From positions 1 through 18,336 of the forward strand of contig JAHLVW010000114.1 of the NCBI GenBank assembly GCA_019058275.1: a DNA stretch of 18,336 nt. The letters run 5' to 3'. Numbering within the stretch: position 1 is the first letter of the stretch; the number at the start of each line of letters is the position of its first letter. The position numbers and the translations under genes were made by a program. This document shows positions 4,632-18,336 of the stretch, piece after piece. The notes under the pieces were generated by a model that searched no databases, had not been told where the DNA came from, and saw only the letters and a program-made list of their open reading frames with translations. The stretch comes from Candidatus Heimdallarchaeota archaeon (GTDB taxonomy: Archaea > Asgardarchaeota > Heimdallarchaeia > JABLTI01).

Positions 4632-5411
4632 ATGAGCAGAAAACTTGATTTACGAGCATTAGCTGGTTGTGTTCTAGAGACAGATGCTGATTTTGATGAA
4701 GTATATATCTTAGGTGGTTTAGTATCAAATGGTAGCTTGAATGCTAATTTAGTTGATATAAAAGGTTCTGTCAAAATTAGAGGAAGTCTTTGGGCAAACA
4801 GATTAATGATAATGGGTGGAATAAATATCGGAGAAGATGTAATAACAGAGATGGATATTGACATCAAAGGAGGAGTGGAAGTTGGTGGGAAAATTCAAGC
4901 TAGGAACATTGAAGCATTTGGTGGATTACATGCCAAAGAAGGTATAGAAGCTTCTAACATGGTTGTTAAAGGTGGAGTAAAATGCAACAACAAAATTCAT
5001 GTGGAAGGTTTAATCGACATTGCTGGTGGATTGGAAGCTCAAGGGGAAATACTAGCAGCAGAGATATCAGCAATTGGTGGTTTGGCAGCTGAAGGAAGAG
5101 TGAAAGTTGTTGGACCCATAAATGTTCGTGGTAAAGTAGAAGTCGAAGGAGATATTGAATGTGATGAGTTTATCTTTCTTATCAGTGGACCTTCCTTCAT
5201 AAATGGTAAATTACAAGCAAATCGAATTAAAATTGAACTTGATGAACATGCAAAAATGGAATCATTTATGCGCGTGGAGGAAATCGTTTCTCCTAATAAA
5301 ATAGAGATAGATTATGTTATTGCTGAACGAGTTGTATGTCCTAAAATGAAAGCAGGAGAGAATACTCGTATTAGTGAACCTATCGAAAAAGATTATGATC
5401 CAGATTATTAA
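4632..5411 (+). CDS. Bactofilin-like (polymer-forming cytoskeletal, YhbE/YhbF-type) beta-helix protein
   Basis: About 10 repeats of 17-18 aa with consensus hxhxGGhxxxxxIxA. C-terminal LQANRIKIEL...IEIDYVIAERV...GENTRI resembles the Bacillus YhbE/F tail. GAGGG upstream of the ATG. Confidence 0.7.
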   Translation: MSRKLDLRALAGCVLETDADFDEVYILGGLVSNGSLNANLVDIKGSVKIRGSLWANRLMIMGGINIGEDVITEMDIDIKGGVEVGGKIQARNIEAFGGLHAKEGIEASNMVVKGGVKCNNKIHVEGLIDIAGGLEAQGEILAAEISAIGGLAAEGRVKVVGPINVRGKVEVEGDIECDEFIFLISGPSFINGKLQANRIKIELDEHAKMESFMRVEEIVSPNKIEIDYVIAERVVCPKMKAGENTRISEPIEKDYDPDY

Positions 5412-6576: not shown

Positions 6577-7755
6577 TTGACAGATGATCTGTATGACAAT
6601 GCAATTACACATCAAGCAAATTTCGAAATAGATGCTTCATTTGATCCAGAGGAAAAGATTGTCATACCTAAGCTAAAATGGAACAAAGTAATCACCATTT
6701 CTGAAACAATGCCTAAGAATGATTGGTTTAAAAGAAATTGGAAATACATAATGGGAATAGTTATAACATTTGGATTAATGGGGTATTTGATTTGGAGAAG
6801 TAAACCAATAGCTATTTGGGAAACTCTTGTTGAATCCAACTACTTATTGATACTCTCATCATTTGGTGGAACAATTATCCTGTTTTTAATTAAAACCCTC
6901 AGATGGAAAGCGATTCTTAAAACACAAGGAATAAACATACCATTTTTCCAAGTTCTAGATCTAGTTTTTATCGGTGCATTTGGGTCCTCAATAACACCAG
7001 CAAAAGTAGGAGATATATTGAGAGCTGTTTATTTAACAAAAAGAGAGAAAAATGCAAAAATGGGAACTGCAGTATTCTCAGTTGTTTTTGATAGAATATT
7101 AGATTTTGTTGGAATATTTATCATAATTGGAATATCTGCTCCATTTATTTTATTGAGATTTGATAATATTGATTGGAAAATTCCTTTAGGATTAGCTGTC
7201 GGTTTTGTAATTTTTGTAGTTCTCACAATTGCAGTTTTCAGTGAAAGGATAACTAAACCTATACTTAGATTTGTTGTCAAATTTATTTCCAAAGTCTTTA
7301 GAAATCAAGAAGCTAAAGACAAAATTAGTTTGAATTCAAATGAAATAATTGATGATTTCTTTACTGGACAGAAGAATTGCAAAATTAAAAATTATCTTTT
7401 GTTGGGATTTCTATCAGTTTTGTTTTGGCTAATACTTGGTTTACAAGGATTTTTACTATTGAAAGGATTTCGAGTAGAGAATGTTAATCCTCTTGTAATT
7501 ATTTCAGTACTTTGTATTGCAGCAATAGTTGCTACTGGAATTCCTACAAGCATTGCTGGTATAGGTATTAGGGATTTTGTAATTGTCACCTTGCTACATC
7601 TAATCTTAGGAATAAGTGATGCACATGCAATTAGCTTATCAATGATTCAGACATTTCTCAATGTTATGATTCCAGGTTTGATTGGTGGTATTCTTATATT
7701 AAGAAGCAGAAGTTCTAAAGATGATCTAAAACCAAAACAGATTGCTTTTTCTTAA
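6577..7755 (+). CDS. UPF0104 / LPG_synthase_TM flippase-like membrane protein
   Basis: About 8-9 TM helices with family motifs LRW, TPAKVGDILRA, FDRILD and PTSIAGIGIRD. Start uncertain (TTG 6577 or ATG 6709). Confidence 0.85.
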   Translation: MTDDLYDNAITHQANFEIDASFDPEEKIVIPKLKWNKVITISETMPKNDWFKRNWKYIMGIVITFGLMGYLIWRSKPIAIWETLVESNYLLILSSFGGTIILFLIKTLRWKAILKTQGINIPFFQVLDLVFIGAFGSSITPAKVGDILRAVYLTKREKNAKMGTAVFSVVFDRILDFVGIFIIIGISAPFILLRFDNIDWKIPLGLAVGFVIFVVLTIAVFSERITKPILRFVVKFISKVFRNQEAKDKISLNSNEIIDDFFTGQKNCKIKNYLLLGFLSVLFWLILGLQGFLLLKGFRVENVNPLVIISVLCIAAIVATGIPTSIAGIGIRDFVIVTLLHLILGISDAHAISLSMIQTFLNVMIPGLIGGILILRSRSSKDDLKPKQIAFS

Positions 7756-7820: not shown

Positions 7821-9362
7821 TTAGATTCCTATCAAGGCTTTGGCAGCTTCACTTGCAAGATTAGAGAAGTACCCTGGAAAGATTCCTACTACAAACATTA
7901 AGAGAACTAATACCATGAGAGGTATTACAATCTCTACTGGAGTCTCTTTAATGTCTTCCAAATGTTCACCTGGTTCTTTGAACCAGAGTCTTTGTAAGAC
8001 AATTAGATAATAGACTACGCTGATAACGCTTGAGAGAAGGAATAAAGCTACTCCTACGAAATATTGCCAGTTTCCACTACCAACAGCAGCAACGACCATG
8101 TTAAATTTGCTCCAGAAACCTGGAAGTGGTGGAACACCTGCTAAACTCAGTAATGAAATTGTTAATGCTCCAATTGTCAATGGCATCTTTTTACCAATAC
8201 CCTTGAGACGATCTAGACCGCGATCATGGAATCGATATAGGATTGCTCCAGCGCATAAAAATGCAAGGCCTTTTCCAAGTGCATGTGTAAAGATATGGAA
8301 GTAACCACCTTGAATTCCTACTGCTGCAACATCTGTATCAATACCACTTAAGGACATAGATAATCCGAAGAGGATAAACCCAACGTTTAGAACGGTGGAG
8401 AATGCTAACAATCGTTTAATGTCGTTTTGTCGTAATGCTAGTAAGTTTCCAACAGCCATGGTTATAACTGATATCCAGAGCAAAGCTGAACCAATTGCTT
8501 CGGTTCCTGTTGAGCCAGAGAAGAATACTGTAAGCGTATTGGTCATTCCAAACATACCTGTCATAATCACAACACCAGACAACATCGCACTAATTCCACT
8601 TGGAGCCGCGGGATGTGCATCTGGAAGCCATGTGTGTAAAGGTACAATAGCAGCTTTCACACCAAAGCCTAAGATTAGACAGATAATGGTTATGACATAC
8701 ACTCCTGAAAATCCATTTGCTGTAATATCAGCAGTTAGGATTGTACCAATTTCTGCTATGTTTAGTGTTCCGGAAACACCATAAAGTAAGCTCATTCCAA
8801 AGAGTAGTAAAACGCTACCGAAAGCACTCATAAAGAGGTATTTAATACCTGCTTCAATAGGTTCTGGATCATCTTTTCTGAATGAAACTAAAATATAGCT
8901 TGCTATGCTCATTGTTTCCCAGAAGATGAACAGGGTAAGTAAATCACCAGCCATTACCACTCCTATCATTCCAGCGACAAGAAAAAGTAATAGTAGATAG
9001 TATTTATCAAGTCTGTCATCCTGATCCATGTATCGAATCGAGAAAATTGCCACTACTGAACCTAAAAGTACGAAGATAAGCATAAACCACCATGTGAGGC
9101 TATCTAATCTAAAGATAGTATAGACACCAGCAACATAGCTCTTATCACCTAACTTCAAGTAAAGGTCTTCAGCAGGGATAGATCCGACACTGCTGTAGAA
9201 GAATATGATTAATCCTAATACGACTAGGAGACAGACATTGGCAATTACTGCGTAAGCTAAGTTCCAACCCACTGTTTCTTTTCGTGCAAATCGTCCTAAT
9301 AATGCAATTAAGACAGCACCTGCAATGAGGATTATTATTGGGAGTAACCAAATAATGTTCAT
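7821..9362 (-). CDS. nuoN: Antiporter-like ion-translocating subunit N (NuoN/MrpD-like)
   Basis: 14-TM Proton_antipo_M pattern: FWE, EAGIKY, VKAAIVPLHTWLPDAH, DIKRLLAFS, GVPPLPGFWSKF. Start moved from TTG 9380 to ATG 9362, which has GGAGG at 9378-9374. Confidence 0.88.
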   Translation of the reverse strand: MNIIWLLPIIILIAGAVLIALLGRFARKETVGWNLAYAVIANVCLLVVLGLIIFFYSSVGSIPAEDLYLKLGDKSYVAGVYTIFRLDSLTWWFMLIFVLLGSVVAIFSIRYMDQDDRLDKYYLLLLFLVAGMIGVVMAGDLLTLFIFWETMSIASYILVSFRKDDPEPIEAGIKYLFMSAFGSVLLLFGMSLLYGVSGTLNIAEIGTILTADITANGFSGVYVITIICLILGFGVKAAIVPLHTWLPDAHPAAPSGISAMLSGVVIMTGMFGMTNTLTVFFSGSTGTEAIGSALLWISVITMAVGNLLALRQNDIKRLLAFSTVLNVGFILFGLSMSLSGIDTDVAAVGIQGGYFHIFTHALGKGLAFLCAGAILYRFHDRGLDRLKGIGKKMPLTIGALTISLLSLAGVPPLPGFWSKFNMVVAAVGSGNWQYFVGVALFLLSSVISVVYYLIVLQRLWFKEPGEHLEDIKETPVEIVIPLMVLVLLMFVVGIFPGYFSNLASEAAKALIGI

Positions 9363-9369
9363 TATTTTT

Positions 9370-10884
9370 TTAGCCTCCAAAGATTTTACTGACTGCTTCA
9401 GTCACGAAGACTAGGACACTCTTTGGGAAAAGTCCGATAACTAAGCTTAAGATTGCAAGGATAATTAATGGAATCCACATTGATGGACTTGGATCCTTGA
9501 CATCTTTGAATTCTTCTTTTTCTGGTCCTAGAAAGACGTTCTTCATAAAGAGAAGGACGTAAGTCGCTGTTAAGGCTGTTGAGAGTATAGCGAAAATCAC
9601 AGCAATAATTCCTAAAGTATTATTTGCTTGTAAACCGCCTTGGAAAATGATCCACTCAGACATAAAGCCTGCTAGTGGAGGTGTGCCGGCAAGACTTAAT
9701 GCAGCAATGATTGCTACAATCGTAGTTATAGGCATTCTACAAGCTAGACCTCCTAGCTTGTCTATTCTTCTACCTTTATGGTGACCAATTTGAGTCATAA
9801 GTATGCCAGCGACCATAAAGAGGGTCCCCTTAGCAAGGGCATGGCTCACGATATGGAATGTTGAACCAGTTGAACCGAAAAGTTCGAAGGTTCCTAAACC
9901 AAACAAGATGTAGCCCATCTGTGAGATAGATGAAAAAGCAAACAATCTTTTTGTGTCTTTTTGTGCTAAAGCCATAAGACCTCCGTAAAGCATAGTGAAT
10001 ACTGCGAAACCAATTAGCACCCAGCGCATCCAACCACCCATTCCTTCCTCGCCAAATATGCTTGTGCAAATTCTGAGGATACCGTAGGCAGCTGTTTCTA
10101 TCATGACACCACTTAGGATAGCACTAATTGGAGTTGGTGCTTCACCATGAGTGTCAGGTAACCAGGTGTGGATTGGGAAGATCGCCATTTTCACACTAAA
10201 ACCGAGCATCATTAGAATTGTTAATAGTCTAATGATATTTGCAGGGGCACTTATTCCTGTTGAAATTAATGTTGCAATGTTAAATGTTCCACCAAAAGCC
10301 CAGAGACCACCAATACCGATTAAAATTGCCATTGCACCTACATGTGTGAAGATGAAATATTTGAAAGCAATTTTCACTGCGTTTGGTTTTGATCCCCATT
10401 TAGCAATGATGAAATATGATGGAATTAACATTAATTCCCAGAATACATAGAATTGTGCTAAATCACCAGCAAGTACTACTCCAACCATTCCAGCAATATA
10501 AAGGACTAGTAGAGCGTAGTACCCACCTTGGCTTTCTTCTTTCTTCATGTATCCAAAGCTGAAAGATACTGCAGCTAATGATAGTATGAAGATGATTGCT
10601 GCCATTGTGAAACTTAAACCATCAGCTACTAATGAAAAGCCAATGTCAATTGTTCTTGAACCAATTGTGAAATTAATCCAATCCCAACCTTCGAAAACAT
10701 CGGAATCAGTACTTGTTACTCCAAGAACATCACCCATTGTTAAGGCAAAGAAGACAGTGGCTATAAGGACAGCTATTAATGCTGACCATTTTGCTGCTTT
10801 ATCATTCCACTTACCTAGAAGGAAAATAACTATTGGTGCTCCTAGCAGAATAGCTAAGGAAATAAATAGTGTAGATTCAAACAT
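9370..10884 (-). CDS. nuoM: Antiporter-like ion-translocating subunit M (NuoM-like)
   Basis: FYVFWELMLIPSY, VKMAIFPIHTWLPDTHGEAPT, and GFMSEW (TM12 Glu diagnostic of NuoM). AGGAGGA overlaps the nuoL stop. Confidence 0.9.
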   Translation of the reverse strand: MFESTLFISLAILLGAPIVIFLLGKWNDKAAKWSALIAVLIATVFFALTMGDVLGVTSTDSDVFEGWDWINFTIGSRTIDIGFSLVADGLSFTMAAIIFILSLAAVSFSFGYMKKEESQGGYYALLVLYIAGMVGVVLAGDLAQFYVFWELMLIPSYFIIAKWGSKPNAVKIAFKYFIFTHVGAMAILIGIGGLWAFGGTFNIATLISTGISAPANIIRLLTILMMLGFSVKMAIFPIHTWLPDTHGEAPTPISAILSGVMIETAAYGILRICTSIFGEEGMGGWMRWVLIGFAVFTMLYGGLMALAQKDTKRLFAFSSISQMGYILFGLGTFELFGSTGSTFHIVSHALAKGTLFMVAGILMTQIGHHKGRRIDKLGGLACRMPITTIVAIIAALSLAGTPPLAGFMSEWIIFQGGLQANNTLGIIAVIFAILSTALTATYVLLFMKNVFLGPEKEEFKDVKDPSPSMWIPLIILAILSLVIGLFPKSVLVFVTEAVSKIFGG

Positions 10885-10900
10885 TGTTCTTCATTTCCTC

Positions 10901-13012
10901 CTAAAGTGTGAATAATAATATCGCCAGTAGGATTATTGCTCCTAATAGCATATAGATGAAATTCACTGAAAGAATTCCTGTATGAGTCTTTCTGAAAACT
11001 TCACCCGACTTCATGGTTCCAGAAGCGATGATATAGTTCGATCGGTCAATAATCTTCAGATCGAAGTATTCATAAGCTAGTTCTGAGAATCGCTTGAATT
11101 TACGTATGCACCAGTAGATTGCAGTATTCATATACCATCTCTTATAGAGGAAGGTGTTAATACTGCGTATGAATTTACTCTTTTCTTGGATTTTACCTGC
11201 ATCCCATTTTCTTCCAATATAGAAGAGGTATGCTGGTAAACCACCTGCCAACAAGATAACTAGAGTAATCCAGAATGTTGGAGGAGCAAATCCAAATGTA
11301 TGTCCTAAGAAATGACCATAGTCTATGGGTGATATTTCGGGATTTAAGATACTTGGGAACCACTCATTGTGAGACATGAAATTCTTCACAATTGGTGATA
11401 ACCAACCCAAAGCGATTGTTCCAACAGCTAGTATAACTAATGGAATCCACATTGTTGGACCAGTTTTGTGTAGATGACCGCCTGATTCTTTCTCAATATG
11501 CTTGACATTTTCTGTTTTCTCACCAAAGAATGTTTTTCCAATGAATCTGAGAGTATAGAAGATTGTCATTGCAGCTGAGATAGCAGCAACAGCGAAGAAT
11601 ATCCATCCGAAAGGATTGTGTTCATGTTGACCTAATTCCCAGCAAACGCCAAAGACTGATTCCTTACTGAAGAATCCACCCAATGGGGGTATTCCAGCAA
11701 GTGACAAACCACCTATAAGCATTGGCCAGAAGACTTTAGGCATATCTTTTCTCAGACCGCCCATTTCATCGACGTATTTGGAATGGATAGTGTGAATTAC
11801 AGCTCCCGCGGAAAGGAATAACAATCCTTTGAATACTGCGTGTGATAACATATGGAATGTACCAGCAAAGTAGCCAGTAACACCTAACTCACCAGTTAAC
11901 AAACCACCAGCACCAAGTCCTATAAACATGTAACCAAGTTGTGAGATGGTACTGAATGCTAGTATTTTCTTTAGTTCTGTAGCAGCCATACCCATTGTTG
12001 CTGCCATGAATGCTGTAAAAGCACCAATTGCTGCGACAAATAGGAAGTAAATTTGTAGTGAATCGTGTCCAAGTTGGTGATAACCGATATACCACATAGG
12101 ATATGTTCTAGCAACCATGTAGACACCTGCTTTAACCATTGCAGCTGCATGTATCAGAGCTGAAACAGTTGTGGGTCCGGCCATTGCTTCTGGAAGCCAG
12201 AATTGTAGTGGAAATTGTGCTGATTTACCGATAGGTCCACCAAAGATCAAAATAGCAGTTAAGACAAGGATTCTATCATTTGCTAAGTTATTCATCCAAG
12301 CTGTATTACTGAGGAGTGACATATAATTGAAAGTTCCAGCATAAGCAAAAACAATCATAATACCAGTCAACATCATTACATCACCAATTCTGGTGGTAAC
12401 GAATGCTTTTAGACCAGCATGTGAATTATAATCACCTTCTGTTTCTTCACGAATGGTGAATTCTCTTGGGTCTTGTTTTTCCTTCTTTGTGAAGAAATAC
12501 CCAATTAAGGCATATGAACAAAAACCAACTATTTCCCAACCAACAAATGATTGTAATAAATTGTTAGACATTACAAGGAAAACCATTCCTCCAATGAACA
12601 ATTGCATTAGGAACCAATATCGGTTAAGATGTTTGTCACCTTTCATGTAACCCACACCATAAATCATGATCATTGTTCCTACACCAGTAGCGAAGCAAGC
12701 GATCATAACTGTTAGTGGGTCAACTAGTACTCCGAATTCTACTCCGTATGTACCTCCACCAAGTCCGAAGAACCATTCAGTTTGGAATAATTCTACACCA
12801 GTGTCTCCATTGAAGACATCAACAACTAACAGGAGACTGAAAATGAATGCAATAAATGAAGTTGCTACTGCCATCCAATCACGGATGATATAGAGAACTT
12901 TCTTTATGCCTTCTGCTTTTAGTAAACCTGCGATCCAACCAATTACTGGAGTAATTAATGCACCAGCAAAAGGAATAGCCCAATTTAATATTGCAGCTGA
13001 TTCTAGTATCAT
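10901..13012 (-). CDS. nuoL: Antiporter-like ion-translocating subunit L (NuoL-like, with C-terminal transverse helix)
   Basis: GWEIVGFCSYALIG, KAFVTTRIGD, GKSAQFPL..WLPEAMAGPTTVSALIH, FFSKE. C-terminal KRWY...IID...HTG plus final TM, as in NuoL. Confidence 0.93.
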   Translation of the reverse strand: MILESAAILNWAIPFAGALITPVIGWIAGLLKAEGIKKVLYIIRDWMAVATSFIAFIFSLLLVVDVFNGDTGVELFQTEWFFGLGGGTYGVEFGVLVDPLTVMIACFATGVGTMIMIYGVGYMKGDKHLNRYWFLMQLFIGGMVFLVMSNNLLQSFVGWEIVGFCSYALIGYFFTKKEKQDPREFTIREETEGDYNSHAGLKAFVTTRIGDVMMLTGIMIVFAYAGTFNYMSLLSNTAWMNNLANDRILVLTAILIFGGPIGKSAQFPLQFWLPEAMAGPTTVSALIHAAAMVKAGVYMVARTYPMWYIGYHQLGHDSLQIYFLFVAAIGAFTAFMAATMGMAATELKKILAFSTISQLGYMFIGLGAGGLLTGELGVTGYFAGTFHMLSHAVFKGLLFLSAGAVIHTIHSKYVDEMGGLRKDMPKVFWPMLIGGLSLAGIPPLGGFFSKESVFGVCWELGQHEHNPFGWIFFAVAAISAAMTIFYTLRFIGKTFFGEKTENVKHIEKESGGHLHKTGPTMWIPLVILAVGTIALGWLSPIVKNFMSHNEWFPSILNPEISPIDYGHFLGHTFGFAPPTFWITLVILLAGGLPAYLFYIGRKWDAGKIQEKSKFIRSINTFLYKRWYMNTAIYWCIRKFKRFSELAYEYFDLKIIDRSNYIIASGTMKSGEVFRKTHTGILSVNFIYMLLGAIILLAILLFTL

Positions 13013-13025
13013 TGTTTTGTATCTC

Positions 13026-13361
13026 CTAATGTTTCAATTGTGATAGTCTTCTTGAGTTCAAGGTAGCGTGCATCCTATAGGCTTGAATTATCAAGGCTAA
13101 AGCAACACCTGCTATACATCCTCCAACACAAATGCTGATAATAACAACAGCATGTGGTAAAGGATCAACTAATCCACTTGCTCCAAAGATGTTTGAAAAT
13201 ACAATGAAGTTCAAGTGAGCTGCATCAAGCAGCAGTTCAATAGCAATCAAGAATTTAATCATGTTTTGTTTCGAGGTGAGACCATAGATGCCTATAGCAA
13301 GAAGCAAAATTGAGAAAATCAAAATGATGTATATATTATCAAATGGAATTTCAACTGCCAT
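13026..13361 (-). CDS. nuoK: Membrane subunit K (NuoK/MrpC/MbhG-like)
   Basis: 111 aa, 3 TM. IGIYGL..KQNMIK.LIAIELLL (NuoK) and DPLPHAVV (MrpC-type). Confidence 0.88.
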   Translation of the reverse strand: MAVEIPFDNIYIILIFSILLLAIGIYGLTSKQNMIKFLIAIELLLDAAHLNFIVFSNIFGASGLVDPLPHAVVIISICVGGCIAGVALALIIQAYRMHATLNSRRLSQLKH

Positions 13362-13363
13362 GT

Positions 13364-13780
13364 CTATCCTGCCTCCTCAAGTTCTTCCGCATCTTTTCGT
13401 TCAAGAATGACGAATTTGTCAGTCTCACACATTTCAGTACGGAATTCTGCGCATTGGTCTTCGATTCCTTTTACAACTGTAGAAGCTGCTTCAGAAGCGA
13501 CCAACAACATGATACCTACAATAATGATATCAACACCTCTGGCTTCCCAAAGAAGATATCCTACTGCTTCACCGATGTCCTTAAAGGTAACATCAGACCC
13601 TCCAACGAAGGTATAATCACCTCTAGAATTATCGTCAGTATCATCTAGTCGTAAACCTCGATCATTCGTTCCTTCTGGATCATAGAAATCCCATAATCCG
13701 AACATCATAAATCCAACGATACCCAGAACGAGGACTATGCTTGAAGCGAATATAAGATATTTTCTCATTTTCTTGTTCAT
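13364..13780 (-). CDS. Membrane subunit J2 (C-terminal half of split NuoJ / MbhE-like)
   Basis: 2 TM helices separated by an acidic loop. VGYLLWEARGVDIIIVGIMLLVA resembles NuoJ TM5 and the RGxD motif of MbhE/MrpA C-terminal domain. ATGA overlap with the upstream gene. Confidence 0.7.
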   Translation of the reverse strand: MNKKMRKYLIFASSIVLVLGIVGFMMFGLWDFYDPEGTNDRGLRLDDTDDNSRGDYTFVGGSDVTFKDIGEAVGYLLWEARGVDIIIVGIMLLVASEAASTVVKGIEDQCAEFRTEMCETDKFVILERKDAEELEEAG

Positions 13781-14091
13781 GCAGATGCTTCCTCCTTAGT
13801 ATCATCTTCTCCGAATAATCGATCTAGATCCTCTGCTGGTTCACCAGTTTCGAATCTCTCAGTTAGAGCAACTGTGGTGATAAGTAACACTGTAACAGCT
13901 CCTCCATAGATCATTAGCTGAAAGAGAGCAACCCACGGAGCATTTAGGATCCAGAAGACTCCAGCCAAGGCTATACTTAGAACAGCTAACGCAATTGCTG
14001 CATATATTAAATCTCGCAATTCAATTGCAAATATTGCTGCGATAACCACAATGACTAGTAAAATAATCAATAATATAGTATTGACATCCAT
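13777..14091 (-). CDS. nuoJ: Membrane subunit J1 (N-terminal half of split NuoJ)
   Basis: 3 TM. LNAPWVALFQLMIYGGAVTVLL matches NuoJ TM3 (QxxxYxGAxxVL). Confidence 0.88.
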   Translation of the reverse strand: MDVNTILLIILLVIVVIAAIFAIELRDLIYAAIALAVLSIALAGVFWILNAPWVALFQLMIYGGAVTVLLITTVALTERFETGEPAEDLDRLFGEDDTKEEASA

Positions 14092-14113
14092 ATTTCTTGC
14101 ACATCCTTTGGTT

Positions 14114-14127
14114 CGACACGAGTGTCG
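14114..14127. repeat. GC-rich palindrome CGACAC-GA-GTGTCG in the nuoI-nuoJ spacer
   Basis: Perfect 6-bp inverted repeat 2 nt after the nuoI stop, in the largest intergenic gap (38 nt) of the operon. Confidence 0.6.
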
Positions 14128-14129
14128 CT

Positions 14130-14555
14130 CTAGCTTTCTTCCTCCTTTGGAGACTCTTCAGTAGCTTCTTCTTTTTTAGCTAATGAAGGTTCTTCTTTCG
14201 AGTAGATGATCATTTCATCTTGTTCGAAAGCTGATAGTTCAATGTAATCAGTAAGAACCAATGCATCGTATCTGCACGCGTCTTCACAGAGACCACAGAA
14301 AATGCATTCACCGAGGTTAATAACTGGTCTTTTACCTGTTTTAGTAATTTCTGAAGGAACCATTACAATTGCCAGAGGTGGACAAGCTCGTTCACAAGCT
14401 CTACAACCTGTGCACAGAGTAATGTCTAAATAGTGCGCACCTCTGAGTCCTATCGCAGGTTTAACTCCTGGTTCGAAAGGATAATCAATGGTCGCTTTTT
14501 TTCGTTTGAAAGCGTTTCTCAATGCTTCCCAAATAATTACTGCTGGTCTTGTCAT
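14130..14555 (-). CDS. nuoI: 2x[4Fe-4S] ferredoxin-like subunit I (NuoI/MbhN/HycF-like)
   Basis: ATIDYPFE, LRG.H, CTGCRACERACP and CIFCGLCEDAC motifs. AGGAGGA directly after the nuoH stop. Confidence 0.95.
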   Translation of the reverse strand: MTRPAVIIWEALRNAFKRKKATIDYPFEPGVKPAIGLRGAHYLDITLCTGCRACERACPPLAIVMVPSEITKTGKRPVINLGECIFCGLCEDACRYDALVLTDYIELSAFEQDEMIIYSKEEPSLAKKEEATEESPKEEES

Positions 14556-14573
14556 GTGTCATCAAATCCTCCT

Positions 14574-15695
14574 TTATGTTGCTCCTCCAGGGAACAATGC
14601 TTCAAATTTGCTCCACAGTGTATTATCTAACCATGGAACCCAGAAGAATGTAACAATCATTAATCCAAGACTTACAGGGATTAACCATTTCCATGAAAAT
14701 TCTAAGAATTGTTCAATTCGTAACCTTGCCATTAATGCTCTCATAGTCGAGAAAACAAGAACGATCAAGGTAGTCTTAATTGCAAACATTAAAGCATAAT
14801 ATGCTATTCGTATAGCACCTACCCACATGACACCAGCTGGTTGAGCTAAGGAAGCTCCTGTACCTAACCAGTCAGCAAAAGAGGGTATCCATATTTCAAC
14901 TCCTATTGGTCCACCTAAGAATAAGGCTGCACCAAGTCCAGCTGCGTACAACATTTGTAAGTCAGCAGACAATCTGAAGAATGCTAACTTCTTTCCAGAG
15001 TACTCAACTTCCCATCCACCGACAATTTCTGTTTCAGCTGTTGGTATATCAAATGGACTTCTTTCTAATTCTGCTTGAGATGAAAGCAAGAATATCAAGA
15101 AGAAGATTACCATTGGTAAGCTGAATAGAACTGGTCTGTGGTGTTCGAGTTGCCATGTAACTATTCCTGCAACAGACAAGCTTTCGGTTCGTAATGCTAC
15201 TGCAAACATTGCCATGAGAATTGGTATTTCATAGCTTAATAATTGTGATGCAACACGCATTGTTCCAGGCATCGCCAACTTATTGGCAGAGAACCATCCT
15301 GCAAGGTATATGACTAAAGCTAAGATTGTAGTTAAGAATGATAGCAATAATAAATCTGCTTCAAATGAGAGAATTCCACTTATGTTAATAATTGGAACAA
15401 ATAACAATGCTAGTAAAGGAATTGTTAATCCAATAACTGCAACGATTCTCATTCCCCATTTATCAGCAGCCTTTGGTTCGATATCTTCATTTGTCATTAG
15501 CTTGAGGAAATCTGCTAAAGGTTGTAAAATACCTTTAAAGCCTGTATGTAAAGGACCTATTCGGTCTTGCAGAGCAGCATAAAACTTCCGATCAATCCAT
15601 TCATCAAATAATGCTATTGAAATACAGAAGCCTATGCCAGGGAAGAAAAGTATCCCCAATATTAGTAATAACCATGGTGCCCATACTGCTAACAT
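14574..15695 (-). CDS. nuoH: Membrane anchor subunit H (NuoH/MbhM/HycD-like)
   Basis: DRKFYA.LQDRIGP, GILQPLADFLKL, QLLSYEIP, RSPFDIPTAETEIVGG..VEYSG. Start moved to ATG 15695 (TAATG overlap with the large-subunit stop, AGGTGG upstream). Confidence 0.94.
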   Translation of the reverse strand: MLAVWAPWLLLILGILFFPGIGFCISIALFDEWIDRKFYAALQDRIGPLHTGFKGILQPLADFLKLMTNEDIEPKAADKWGMRIVAVIGLTIPLLALLFVPIINISGILSFEADLLLLSFLTTILALVIYLAGWFSANKLAMPGTMRVASQLLSYEIPILMAMFAVALRTESLSVAGIVTWQLEHHRPVLFSLPMVIFFLIFLLSSQAELERSPFDIPTAETEIVGGWEVEYSGKKLAFFRLSADLQMLYAAGLGAALFLGGPIGVEIWIPSFADWLGTGASLAQPAGVMWVGAIRIAYYALMFAIKTTLIVLVFSTMRALMARLRIEQFLEFSWKWLIPVSLGLMIVTFFWVPWLDNTLWSKFEALFPGGAT

Positions 15696-16966
15696 TATTT
15701 TTTCCACCTTTTGTTTTTGGCATTCCATTCTTTGGAATATTTTCTTAGTTGGTCTAAATTCCATGTCCAAACTTTTGATTTCCTTCGGTCTTTGTTGATA
15801 ATAATTATCATTCTGTCTTCACAACTGAAGCAAGGATCAATTGAAGCTAATGATATTGTAGAATCAGCAATGTAGTCTCCTTTCAACATTTCACTAACTG
15901 AAAGTATGTTAGCTAATGTTGGAGTAGTAATTTTCAATCTGTATGGTTTGTTTGTATTATTTGACCAAAGGTAGTGAATCAGTTCACCACGAGGAGCCTC
16001 TGTTCTTGAGAGAATTTGAGCTTCTGGAATCTTCCTTGGTGGTTTAGCAAAAACAGGTCCATTTGGCATGTTCTCAACTAACCATATAATGTATTTACAA
16101 GCCTCAATAGTTTCAATCAAACGAACAACAACTCTTGAGAATACATCATTGGTATCATAAGTCACAACTTTGAAGATATCTCTTAAAGGCCCCTTATAAG
16201 CACTATAGGGATCATCATATCGAATATCAATAGCTAGTCCAGATGCACGTGCTGTAGGACCACAAGCGCAAAGTTCTTTGGCTTTGCTTGGTAAAAGGAT
16301 TCCAACTCCTTGTGTTCGTAAACGAACTGTATCTTCTTTAATACAGATATCAACATACCTTTCTAATCTCTCAATGGTTAGATTCATATACTTGACAGTT
16401 CTGTCCAATTGTTCTTGGGTCATGTTTCTTCGTATACCACCGATTTCATTGATACCATAGTTGACTCTGTTGCCAGTAATTTCTTCTAAAAGATCCATAG
16501 ATAATTCACGATCACGCCATGAAAGCATAAATAATGTATCAAAACCAATTTCATGGGCAGCTATGCCTAACCAAAGTATGTGGCTATGAATTCGTTCTAA
16601 TTCAAGTATAATTGTTCGTATGTATTGTGCTCTCTCTGGTACTTCAAAGTCATGTGAGCTAAGTATTCCTTCTACAGCATTTACCAATGAAATAGAATGT
16701 ACATGACTACAAATACCACAGACACGCTCAACCAAAGTGAGATTCTGGGAATAGGTTTTTGTTTCAGCTAATTTCTCAATTCCACGGTGAACATAACCAA
16801 TTCTTGGAGTAACATTAACAATGACTTCTCCTTCAACTTCTAATAAGAAATGTTCTGGTTCTTTCAACGCGGGATGTTGAGGACCAAGAGGAATTTCCAT
16901 AGTATTGGGTATGCAAGCAGCACATCCTGTTTTTGGGCTTGCGACTTTAATTTTCTTTTTCGCCAA
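15695..16966 (-). CDS. Group 4 [NiFe]-hydrogenase large subunit (NuoD homologue with intact Ni ligands)
   Basis: GPQHPALKEP, GYVHRGIEK, L1 ERVCGICSHVH (C83, C86), ELERIHSH, EAPRGE, L2 DPCFSCEDR (C379, C382) and a 38-aa tail. TTG start with GAGGTGA overlapping the nuoC stop. Confidence 0.95.
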   Translation of the reverse strand: MAKKKIKVASPKTGCAACIPNTMEIPLGPQHPALKEPEHFLLEVEGEVIVNVTPRIGYVHRGIEKLAETKTYSQNLTLVERVCGICSHVHSISLVNAVEGILSSHDFEVPERAQYIRTIILELERIHSHILWLGIAAHEIGFDTLFMLSWRDRELSMDLLEEITGNRVNYGINEIGGIRRNMTQEQLDRTVKYMNLTIERLERYVDICIKEDTVRLRTQGVGILLPSKAKELCACGPTARASGLAIDIRYDDPYSAYKGPLRDIFKVVTYDTNDVFSRVVVRLIETIEACKYIIWLVENMPNGPVFAKPPRKIPEAQILSRTEAPRGELIHYLWSNNTNKPYRLKITTPTLANILSVSEMLKGDYIADSTISLASIDPCFSCEDRMIIIINKDRRKSKVWTWNLDQLRKYSKEWNAKNKRWKK

Positions 16967-16975
16967 TCTATCACC

Positions 16976-17491
16976 TCATTTTTTAGCCTTTTTTGCAGCT
17001 TCTTCCTTTTGTATTTCCAACAGGAAGTCTTTACGCAATGGGTGTACCCCATCTGGAAAATCTTCTGGTAAGATAAGTCGACTAAGGTCTGGATGTCCTT
17101 CAAAAAAGATACCCAGTAAATCATGTGTTTCACGTTCGAAAAATTGCACCCCTGGAATTACCTCTGAAGATGAGGTTAGTTTAGGGTTATTATAATCAGT
17201 ACAATCCACATGTAAATTCATGGTTACTGCAGTTTCCCCGTTATGAGGTGGTATAATATCAAAATGATATACACAAGCTATTACTTTTTCTGGTGTATCA
17301 ACACCTGAAATAGCGATCATATGCCAAGCATTCCATTTTTCCTTTGCAAAAACAAATACCTCTAATTGGTCGGGGTCAGCAACTTTGACATAAATTCTCC
17401 TTAGGGCTCGTATTTCTGCCTCGAGAATCTTATCTCCAAATTGACTTTTCAATGCGTCAATTACCTTTTGTTCTCTTTTCGTATCACTCAT
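16976..17491 (-). CDS. nuoC: Subunit C (NuoC/MbhK-like)
   Basis: ISGVD, YHF, and [43 protein letters not shown] overlap with the upstream gene, AGGAGG upstream. Confidence 0.94.
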
Positions 17492-17994
17492 TATATAGCA
17501 AAAGCCTCCTTATCTTTTATATGACTCTTTAAGTCAATCTCCTTCGGAGTTATAACAGGGGTTTCTTTACCTTGTAATTTTGCTAACAATTGAGCAATGC
17601 CAAAAATAATCGCCTCTGGTTTAGGAGGACATCCAGGAATATAGATATCTACGGGGATAACTGTATCAATTCCCAAACAAGGAATGTAGCTGTGTCTAAA
17701 AATACCACCACTACAAGCGCAAGCGCCAATAGCAATAACAAATTTAGGATCTGGTGTCTGTTCCCATAATAGCTTAAGACGATTTTTCATTTGTTGGGTT
17801 GCGGGTCCTGTCACTACTAAGACATCTGCATGTCTAGGGCTACCTTGAATAAGTATTCCAAGGCGTTCCACATCGTATCTAGGAGTTAGAACATCGACTA
17901 CTTCGATATCACATCCGTTACAACCTCCTGTATTGACATGAATTATCCAGGGTGACTTCACTCGCGCCCAATTGACTATCTTCTTCAGAACCAT
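17491..17994 (-). CDS. Group 4 hydrogenase small subunit (NuoB homologue, one [4Fe-4S])
   Basis: [50 protein letters not shown] 17994 preferred over GTG 18006 because AAGGTGA lies 8 nt upstream. Confidence 0.94.
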
Positions 17995-18002
17995 AGTAAT
18001 TT

Positions 18003-18336
18003 TCACCTTCTGAGTGATATCACTCCTAAAAGTCCAATACCAGCGAATATTGCTGCTACTGCACTAAATTCATACCCTTGCTTAAGGGTCACCATAGCGG
18101 TTGCTAGGACGAATGCTAATATATCAAAAATAGTGAAATAGATAGCAAAGATGAATACATTGGGATAGAATTGTGATTGACCACCTTCCATGTCTTCTCC
18201 GCATGCATAGCTTTTCAGCTTTTCTGGTGGAGGGGTTCGCGGGGCCAACCGGCGACCTAAAATGTATAATAGGAGTACGGCAACCAGGATTACGACTAAA
18301 GCAAGCCAAAGGTTATACGGTTCAGGTGCTCGGGCC
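18003..18336 (-). CDS. nuoA: Membrane subunit A (NuoA-like), 5' end outside window
   Basis: Frame stays open to the window edge: ARAPEPYNLWLALVVILVAVLLLYILGRRLAPRTPPPEKLKSYACGED...FAIYFTIFDIL...TM3. This gives 3 TM helices, a KxxxYxCG loop and the FxIFD motif. Confidence 0.88.
   Translation of the reverse strand, partial: ARAPEPYNLWLALVVILVAVLLLYILGRRLAPRTPPPEKLKSYACGEDMEGGQSQFYPNVFIFAIYFTIFDILAFVLATAMVTLKQGYEFSAVAAIFAGIGLLGVISLRR

Follow-up and report, generated by a model that had tools for sequence, protein, structure and literature searches.

A putative complex I-shaped [NiFe] hydrogenase with three antiporter-like modules in one family of Heimdallarchaeia

Complex I is presumed to descend from energy-converting hydrogenases, and among known archaea the Heimdallarchaeia are the nearest relatives of eukaryotes. 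We analyzed a predicted hydrogenase operon from this class, located on an 18,336-base stretch of Candidatus Heimdallarchaeota archaeon DNA (contig JAHLVW010000114.1 of assembly GCA_019058275.1; the whole stretch is referred to below as the window). Complex I-like group 4 [NiFe] hydrogenases of Heimdallarchaeia, in subgroups 4j, 4m, 4p and 4q, were described by Appler et al. (2024, bioRxiv 10.1101/2024.07.04.601786), and a complex I-like group 4 hydrogenase of Freyarchaeia and Atabeyarchaeia with two antiporters was reported by Valentin-Alvarado et al. (Nat Commun 2024, PMC11291895). Both papers agree with the suggestion, made in a preliminary description of the window, that similar complexes had been reported in Heimdallarchaeia. 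The window operon resembles the enzymes of Appler et al. in having a NuoBCDI-type arm without NuoEFG, an active-looking Ni-Fe site, ferredoxin as the proposed donor and a complex I-type membrane arm, and differs from them in that L, M and N are all present. Compared with the Freyarchaeia/Atabeyarchaeia enzyme, it has three antiporter-like subunits, belongs to a different Asgard class and has a D subunit with an N-terminal CxxC arm. Overall, the Ni-Fe type D, the NuoBCDI arm and the Nuo-type membrane arm with its HL helix match the 2024 Asgard descriptions, whereas the antiporter-like subunits number three versus two, or "one or more missing". The present family is either an exception to the published Asgard layout or was not resolved in that work. 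Complex I-shaped Asgard hydrogenases were thus already published in 2024, and the three-module version with additional cysteines appears to be undescribed in the literature examined.

Twelve co-oriented genes occupy the minus strand from position 18335 to 7821, with overlaps or gaps of no more than 38 bases by open reading frame (ORF) reading, unbroken frames and the order nuoA-B-C-D-H-I-J1-J2-K-L-M-N (Table 1). We consider it likely that they encode a membrane-bound energy-converting group 4 [NiFe] hydrogenase which is built on the 11-subunit core plan of complex I and acts as a ferredoxin-driven, H2-evolving ion pump. The 11-subunit core and its order had been proposed in the preliminary description, and both were recovered from Pfam matches and the tight packing of the ORFs. 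The gene set given there also stood, and several starts were corrected: gene A is truncated, H most likely starts at 15695 (373 aa) and N most likely starts at 9362 (513 aa). The start of gene A is missing because the window is a complete contig (of a 4.1-Mb genome, 92.8% complete) that ends inside this gene.

The catalytic arm contains the features expected of a hydrogenase. Both Ni-Fe ligand motifs of group 4 enzymes, L1 (RxCGxCxxxH) and L2 (DPCxxCxxH/R), were present in D. When D was aligned with E. coli NuoCD, HycE and HyfG, its L1 sequence ERVCGICSHVH corresponded to DRIEYL of NuoD, its L2 sequence DPCFSCEDR to DFVMSDVDR, its EAPRGE motif to EATKG, and it read GPQHPALKEP where NuoD has HPxxHG (HPSAHG in E. 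coli). These motifs were equal to those of HycE and HyfG residue for residue; the quinone-site His and Tyr motifs of NuoD were not present, nor was the NuoD-specific insertion. The four Ni-Fe cysteines, the Glu of the proton relay and the Arg of EAPRGE were invariant in 15 homologs with identities down to 53%. Past the last motif, D has a 38-residue C-terminal tail that aligned as a homolog of the HycE propeptide removed by HycI. Among solved structures (PDB phmmer), D matched HycE with 277 bits, MbhL with 265 and Nqo4 with 200, and no NuoD scored above 200. Its best NCBIfam model was NuoD (313 bits, under the 360-bit cut-off), and it scored 266 bits against the FpoD equivalog (cut-off 600). 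In B, the motif GGCNGC was as in HycG and HyfI, in place of the tandem CC of NuoB, and the GACxxSGG and GCPP motifs also aligned with HycG and HyfI, indicating a single proximal [4Fe-4S] cluster of HycG type; by BLAST, B matched HycG with 139 bits versus 108 bits for NuoB. In BLAST comparisons with E. coli proteins, B, C, D and I were nearer to Hyc, and H, J1, L and M were nearer to Nuo. In NCBIfam, Nuo models ranked first for D, B, H, L and M, and B, L and M scored above the Nuo-family cut-offs. The I subunit is the probable docking site of the electron donor. Taken together, the motifs give good support to the prediction that the operon encodes a group 4 [NiFe] hydrogenase and speak against a quinone reductase. 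The preliminary description had read D as having RVCGIC, DPCFSC, the Glu and the EAPRG Arg without the NuoD quinone motifs, and B as having CNGC rather than tandem CC; both readings were confirmed by the alignments. Its reading of the complex as a true [NiFe] hydrogenase was likewise supported, given these motifs, the scores of HycE and MbhL above those of NuoD, and the complete Hyp set and HycI-type proteases of the genome, as was its call of distinct L, M and N subunits with a transverse helix on L, which agreed with the trees, the full-length NuoL/NdhF match and the structural model described below.

The membrane subunits that connect the catalytic arm to the pump modules were of complex I type. 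The YACGED loop and FDIL motif of A aligned with E. coli NuoA, the Asp of FDVE being kept and the Glu not. H was closer to NuoH than to HycD (128 vs. 61 bits by BLAST), had a NuoH-type loop between transmembrane segments (TM) 1 and 2 and a SANK...SYE motif, and scored 153 bits against the FpoH equivalog (cut-off 475). NuoJ appears to be split in two genes, because J1 aligned with TM1-3 of E. coli NuoJ (including the conserved Tyr) and J2 with TM4-5. No Pfam or NCBIfam family was matched by J2, which was conserved in five loci of the family; an ORF at the same position in Asgardarchaeia was 31% identical.

Each of L, M and N matched both Proton_antipo_M and Proton_antipo_N of Pfam. Phylogenetic trees of these proteins included E. 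coli NuoL/M/N, HyfB/D/F and HycC. Two canonical Heimdall complex I operons contributed their L/M/N subunits, and related hydrogenase loci their antiporter-like subunits. In these quick trees with long reference branches, L, M and N fell in three clades with NuoL, NuoM and NuoN (SH-aLRT 100, 95 and 99, respectively), and an LG+G4 tree gave the same placement. Orthology with NuoL, NuoM and NuoN is therefore well supported by the sequences, short of proof. L aligned with NdhF, Nad5 and Nqo12 up to residue 699 (phmmer), its 32 best Foldseek matches were all NuoL, NdhF or ND5 chains, and it scored 364 bits against the FpoL equivalog (cut-off 1050). An AF2 monomer model of L (pTM 0.80) had a helix at residues 628-676 followed by a TM at 679-702; pLDDT was low in this part, as expected in a monomer model. 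The best PDB match of N was MbhH (249 bits). The charge pattern of complex I was found in all three modules, with the TM5 Glu (E160, E150 and E155 in L, M and N, respectively), the TM7 Lys (K263, K232 and K242) and a TM12 residue that is Lys in L (K450), Glu in M (E410) and Lys in N (K425). L also has D211, and a His-His-Lys set is present in L (H387, H391, K395), M (H344, H348, K352) and N (H362, H366, K370).

Table 1. Predicted genes and sequence features of the window
Feature	Position	Strand	Evidence or remark
A, NuoA-like 3-TM subunit, 5' end cut by contig end	18003..18335	-	Pfam Oxidored_q4, E 5.5e-10
B, hydrogenase small subunit (NuoB/HycG-like), one [4Fe-4S] ligand set	17491..18006	-	Pfam Oxidored_q6, E 6e-34
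C, NuoC-like 30-kDa subunit, separate gene, unfused to D (fused in HycE)	16976..17491	-	Pfam Complex1_30kDa, E 8.6e-27
D, [NiFe] large subunit, 423 aa	15695..16966	-	Pfam Complex1_49kDa and NiFeSe_Hases (N-terminal domain)
D, N-terminal TGCxxC arm	16898-16966	-	
H, NuoH-like, joins catalytic module to pump	14574..15695	-	Pfam NADHdh, E 2.8e-76
I, NuoI/HycF-like 2x[4Fe-4S] ferredoxin subunit	14130..14555	-	Two CxxCxxCxxxCP-type motifs; Pfam Fer4/Fer4_7; NCBIfam NuoI and FHL Fe-S models
J1, N-terminal half of split NuoJ (MbhD-like)	13777..14091	-	Pfam Oxidored_q3 and MbhD
J2, C-terminal half of split NuoJ, 2 TM, 138 aa	13364..13780	-	Alignment with E. coli NuoJ TM4-5
J2, C-terminal cysteine tail	13424-13456	-	
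K, NuoK-like 3-TM subunit	13026..13361	-	Pfam Oxidored_q2, E 1.9e-20
L, NuoL ortholog, 703 aa, long C-terminal helix and terminal TM anchor	10901..13012	-	TIGR01974, 463.6 bits (cut-off 407.5)
M, NuoM-type antiporter-like subunit, 504 aa	9370..10884	-	TIGR01972, 333 bits (cut-off 263.8)
N, NuoN/MbhH-type antiporter-like subunit, ~513 aa	7821..9362	-	N clade with NuoN; TIGR01770, 267 bits (below cut-off 332.6)
Lysyl-phosphatidylglycerol-synthase-like membrane protein	6577-7755		Downstream of operon
Bactofilin-domain protein	4632-5411		Downstream of operon

The operon was also compared with other energy-converting complexes. Its catalytic module is like that of the Pyrococcus furiosus membrane-bound hydrogenase (MBH; group 4d, PDB 6CFW; MbhL, 265 bits). 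MBH, however, has one antiporter-like subunit (MbhH) and Mrp-type small subunits, whereas three antiporter-like subunits and no Mrp E/F/G match were found here. With E. coli formate hydrogenlyase (FHL) and Hyf (group 4a, PDB 7Z0S), the operon shares a D that is 40% identical to HycE and has the HycE-like propeptide; FHL differs in that it contains HycB and formate dehydrogenase, has C fused to D and lacks a NuoA/J/K set. In the D tree, MBH and FHL each sat apart on a long branch. Complex I, NDH-1 and Fpo share with the window operon the order A-B-C-D-H-I-J-K-L-M-N, orthologous H, L, M and N subunits and the lateral helix. In contrast to them, it has a Ni-Fe site in place of the quinone site, CxxC and not CC in B, and no NADH, F420 or other input module.

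The window operon belongs to a narrowly distributed clade. Proteins 72-95% identical to D came from Asgard or Heimdallarchaeota records, several of which had been named NADH dehydrogenase or NuoD at the source. A survey of 83 species genomes of the class found the clade (at least 74% D identity, N-terminal arm included) only in the window's own family, where 9 of the 12 genomes carried it intact; the remaining three are 69-85% complete. All six loci examined in the family share the 12 genes and their order, with 74-95% D identity. Five distinct genomes are represented, because L016 comes from a second assembly of the window sequence and L023 and L120 are one contig. Group 4 hydrogenases of five other families of the class were 41-50% identical in D and formed separate large-subunit clades, and their operons had two antiporter-like subunits (L and N), often beside hycI and hypC. 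As the preliminary description had anticipated, annotation of such operons is misleading: sources label D as NADH dehydrogenase subunit D, and NCBIfam ranks Nuo models first.

Members of this clade have additional cysteines in two subunits. At its N terminus, D is extended by a basic arm of ~24 aa in which a TGCxxC motif is invariant; the arm was present in all 20 full-length clade members and in no relative at 56% identity or below. J2 has a predicted cytoplasmic C-terminal tail with the sequence QCxEFRTEMCE, which was kept in four of five species. The J2 tail could pair with the CxxC arm of D. In the locus L118, Arg replaces the first Cys of J2, while D retains both of its cysteines, which weakens the idea of a shared four-Cys site.

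A scan of one genome per species yielded 595 relatives of D. Beyond two Heimdall loci, the best 80 of these were 49-56% identical and came from Jordarchaeia, Bathyarchaeia, Thermoproteota, Thermoplasmatota and more than 15 bacterial phyla, including Planctomycetota, Omnitrophota, Acidobacteriota, Bacillota, Elusimicrobiota and Spirochaetota. Most of the relatives examined carry A, B, C, D, H, I, J and K together with two or three antiporter-like genes, suggesting that a Ni-Fe enzyme on a complex I-type chassis is common in uncultured anaerobes. According to the trees, some Bathyarchaeia carry orthologs of L, M and N, and the bacterial antiporter-like subunits fall partly outside the NuoL/M clades. 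Unlike the window operon, the bacterial loci put membrane genes first: in L028-L102, whose Ni-Fe large subunits were 49-54% identical to D, three antiporter-like genes are followed by J-K-A-B-C-D-H-I. The statement in the preliminary description that only Hyf has three antiporter-like subunits is therefore out of date, since many bacterial and Bathyarchaeial relatives have three. Group 4g, under which such enzymes are filed, has been reported in Omnitrophota and called polyphyletic, and the wider relatives probably are filed under HydDB group 4g, an assignment taken from the literature.

The trees further suggested how the third module may have been acquired. In trees of D, in which E. coli HycE, HyfG and NuoD were the named-group references, the family formed a clade with support 100 (stem 0.5-0.6) beside Jordarchaeia and Asgardarchaeia sequences and was parted from HycE and HyfG (4a) by a long branch. 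Operons of Asgardarchaeia, Jordarchaeia and Lokiarchaeia (L121, L122 and L020) were nearest by D, L and N, with D 54-56% identical. The Asgardarchaeia operon L121 has the shared order A-B-C-D-H-I-J1-J2-K-L-N; unlike the window operon, it has no M module and no Cys tail on J2, and the D arm is absent in this group of three. L grouped with hydrogenase L subunits of Asgardarchaeia, Jordarchaeia and Lokiarchaeia (support 96); for N, the Asgardarchaeia subunit was nearest by path, with the grouping unresolved. M grouped with Bathyarchaeial hydrogenase M subunits, and its nearest sequence in the tree was the additional, fourth antiporter-like protein encoded in a Heimdall complex I operon (L125; 47% identity by BLAST, weak support of 81). 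This locus (L125:8145-19000), from another Heimdall family, is a canonical complex I operon with four antiporter-like genes and a D without Ni-Fe cysteines. Because M groups apart from L and N, the three-module arm looks like a later addition in one family, and the simplest reading of these sequences is that a two-module Asgard hydrogenase later gained an M module. The preliminary description had called the complex an evolutionary intermediate between hydrogenases and complex I; this label did not hold, as the nearest D, L and N relatives have two modules in the same order and M groups elsewhere. We also considered a swap of the whole membrane arm from Heimdall complex I and rejected it, since L and N grouped with Asgard hydrogenase L and N and not with canonical Heimdall NuoL and NuoN. 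We tentatively propose, as a possibility that is more doubtful than not, that one family of Heimdallarchaeia inserted a NuoM-type third module into a two-module Asgard hydrogenase, which would then be unique among Asgard hydrogenases in having a full-length complex I arm, and that the TGCxxC motif of D and the QCx8C motif of J2 arose in the same lineage, where together they may provide an additional metal or redox-switch site gating coupling.

The gene content of the genome agreed with the hydrogenase reading. The maturation genes named as a check in the preliminary description were all detected: HypA, HypB, HypC, HypD, HypE and HypF, along with three HycI-type proteases, and the genome has three NiFe large subunits. 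The input modules named there gave a mixed result. A Pfam search of the operon proteins detected none of NuoEFG, FpoF, HycB-like, Fdh or Mrp E/F/G proteins in the operon; a stand-alone NuoE-NuoF-NuoG-like cluster was present on contig C33 (~72.1-75.6 kb), distant from the hydrogenase operon, and probably belongs to a soluble NAD-linked redox complex. No canonical NuoD and no second intact complex I-type operon were found in the 92.8%-complete genome. Contig C30 has a degenerate pair (L017:9878-12142) in which a NuoD-like protein of 375 aa that has lost all Ni-Fe cysteines lies beside a NuoH-like protein of 351 aa; the pair adjoins a 209-aa membrane protein, and other complex I genes are not nearby. 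A stand-alone membrane-arm remnant was found on contig C84. The genome also encodes seven alpha subunits of the POR type (2-oxoacid:ferredoxin oxidoreductase), and no heme-copper oxidase was detected in it.

The genes surrounding the operon were also analyzed. Two genes lie downstream (Table 1), of which the lysyl-phosphatidylglycerol-synthase-like gene is a conserved operon neighbor across the family. In L016, gene A (111 aa) is the first gene of the operon, and the genes upstream of it are divergently transcribed. One of them, on the opposite strand upstream of nuoA (L016:6122-7201), encodes an Fe-S protein of 359 aa (weak match to reductive dehalogenases) and was found in three species (also in L023, L024 and L120). 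It directly adjoins the operon in L023/L120, and a DUF362-Fer4 gene intervenes in L016 and L024. In other species, the upstream neighbors are different Fe-S genes (a DUF362-Fer4 protein and a 427-aa Fer4 protein). No orthologous partner was common to all family loci that could point, by gene neighborhood, to a dedicated electron-input partner.

In the proposed mechanism, reduced ferredoxin produced by 2-oxoacid:ferredoxin oxidoreductases would dock on subunit I, whose two [4Fe-4S] clusters, followed by the single cluster in B, would relay electrons to the Ni-Fe site of D. Protons would be reduced to H2 there, at the position where complex I reduces quinone. The energy would be transmitted via H, A, J1/J2 and K to the modules N, M and L, held by the lateral helix of L, which would export H+ (or Na+) for use by an A-type ATP synthase. 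D is expected to be matured by HypA-F and to lose its C-terminal propeptide to a HycI-type protease. The donor, direction, ion and stoichiometry in this scheme are inferred. Ferredoxin oxidation, proton reduction and ion export are favored because the operon has no input module and the genome has seven oxidoreductases and no oxidase that we could find. By standard potentials, electron transfer from ferredoxin (~-500 mV) to H2 at ~1 Pa should yield roughly 45 kJ per H2, and ~20-45 kJ depending on H2 pressure. The cell could then afford three to four ions per H2 only if a partner held H2 near 1 Pa and the membrane potential were modest. An arm of this length is therefore in keeping with a syntrophic lifestyle in which H2 is scavenged.

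Several points weigh against a ferredoxin-driven, H2-evolving pump. Four ion paths would be hard to fund by ferredoxin-to-H2 electron transfer at ordinary H2 pressure. K keeps the first of the two NuoK glutamates and lacks the second (alignment with E. coli), and M and N are without the TM8 lysine of NuoM and NuoN, with a NuoL-like H-x3-H-x3-K in its place, so that pumping by every module is not assured. Neither hyp nor hycI genes adjoin the operon, in contrast to the hydrogenase operons of other Heimdall families. The sole RNA evidence consists of short contigs in metatranscriptome library X11 which cover many operon genes with 93-96% similarity; they are from a relative and may be derived from DNA in the library. 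Stretches of the operon that the RNA runs do not cover are uninformative. Some modules may exchange rather than pump, or the reaction may proceed in reverse. Reversibility is established for group 4 enzymes, and we think it unlikely, though worth weighing, that this one works mainly by oxidizing H2 and using the ion gradient to drive uphill ferredoxin reduction, as Eha, Ehb and Ech do in methanogens. A high ion-to-electron ratio would favor the uphill direction at low H2, and the two other NiFe large subunits of the genome could make or recycle H2. However, the seven oxidoreductase alpha subunits and the terminal oxidase that was not found suggest a cell that makes much reduced ferredoxin and needs a sink for it, as expected for H2 evolution.

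Two other explanations were considered. That the operon encodes an ordinary ferredoxin- or NADH-linked complex I, a quinone reductase keeping hydrogenase-like residues, is suggested by the source names of D and by the Nuo models that rank first and whose cut-offs B, L and M pass. We regard this as highly improbable: D is below the NuoD cut-off and lacks the NuoD His and Tyr motifs and insertion, while the four Ni ligands, the Glu, the Arg and the protease-type propeptide are all conserved, and these motifs have been lost in canonical Heimdall NuoD proteins of other families. Published models of related Heimdall complexes also show no quinone access (10.1101/2024.07.04.601786). An artefact of assembly, binning or decay, in which a short contig ending inside gene A carries an operon that is foreign or dead, might be suspected from base composition. 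The operon is a GC island (38.9% vs. 32.1% in the flanks and 32.5% in the genome), none of 655 windows of 10.5 kb from the genome was as GC-rich, and GC was elevated at all codon positions including GC3; old transfer or codon bias could be the cause. Yet the identical operon, bordered by the same low-GC sequence, lies inside a 930-kb contig of the other assembly, and contamination was rejected on this basis. With the operon intact in most genomes of the family, conserved neighbors and no broken frame, an artefact is barely conceivable and the least probable of the readings considered here. Gene A in the window (18003-18335) was 91% identical to its counterpart at L016:8629-8964, and the rest of the operon was 100% identical. 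The mismatches in gene A cluster at the contig end and are probably due to strain mixing at the assembly edge.

The clade described here appears to join proton-reducing chemistry with orthologs of all three pump modules and the lateral helix of complex I. Provided that the enzyme is active, a long membrane arm would not depend on quinone chemistry and could be gained module by module. The clade would also be a natural case for measuring how many ions can be moved by a low-energy reaction such as ferredoxin to H2. Should the proposed insertion of a third module be true, the ion-to-electron ratio of hydrogenases would be evolutionarily tunable by module gain, in parallel to complex I. The routine labeling of such operons as NADH:quinone oxidoreductase leads to overstated claims of respiration in Asgard genomes, and recognition of these operons as likely hydrogenases bears on the livelihood of syntrophic Asgard archaea.

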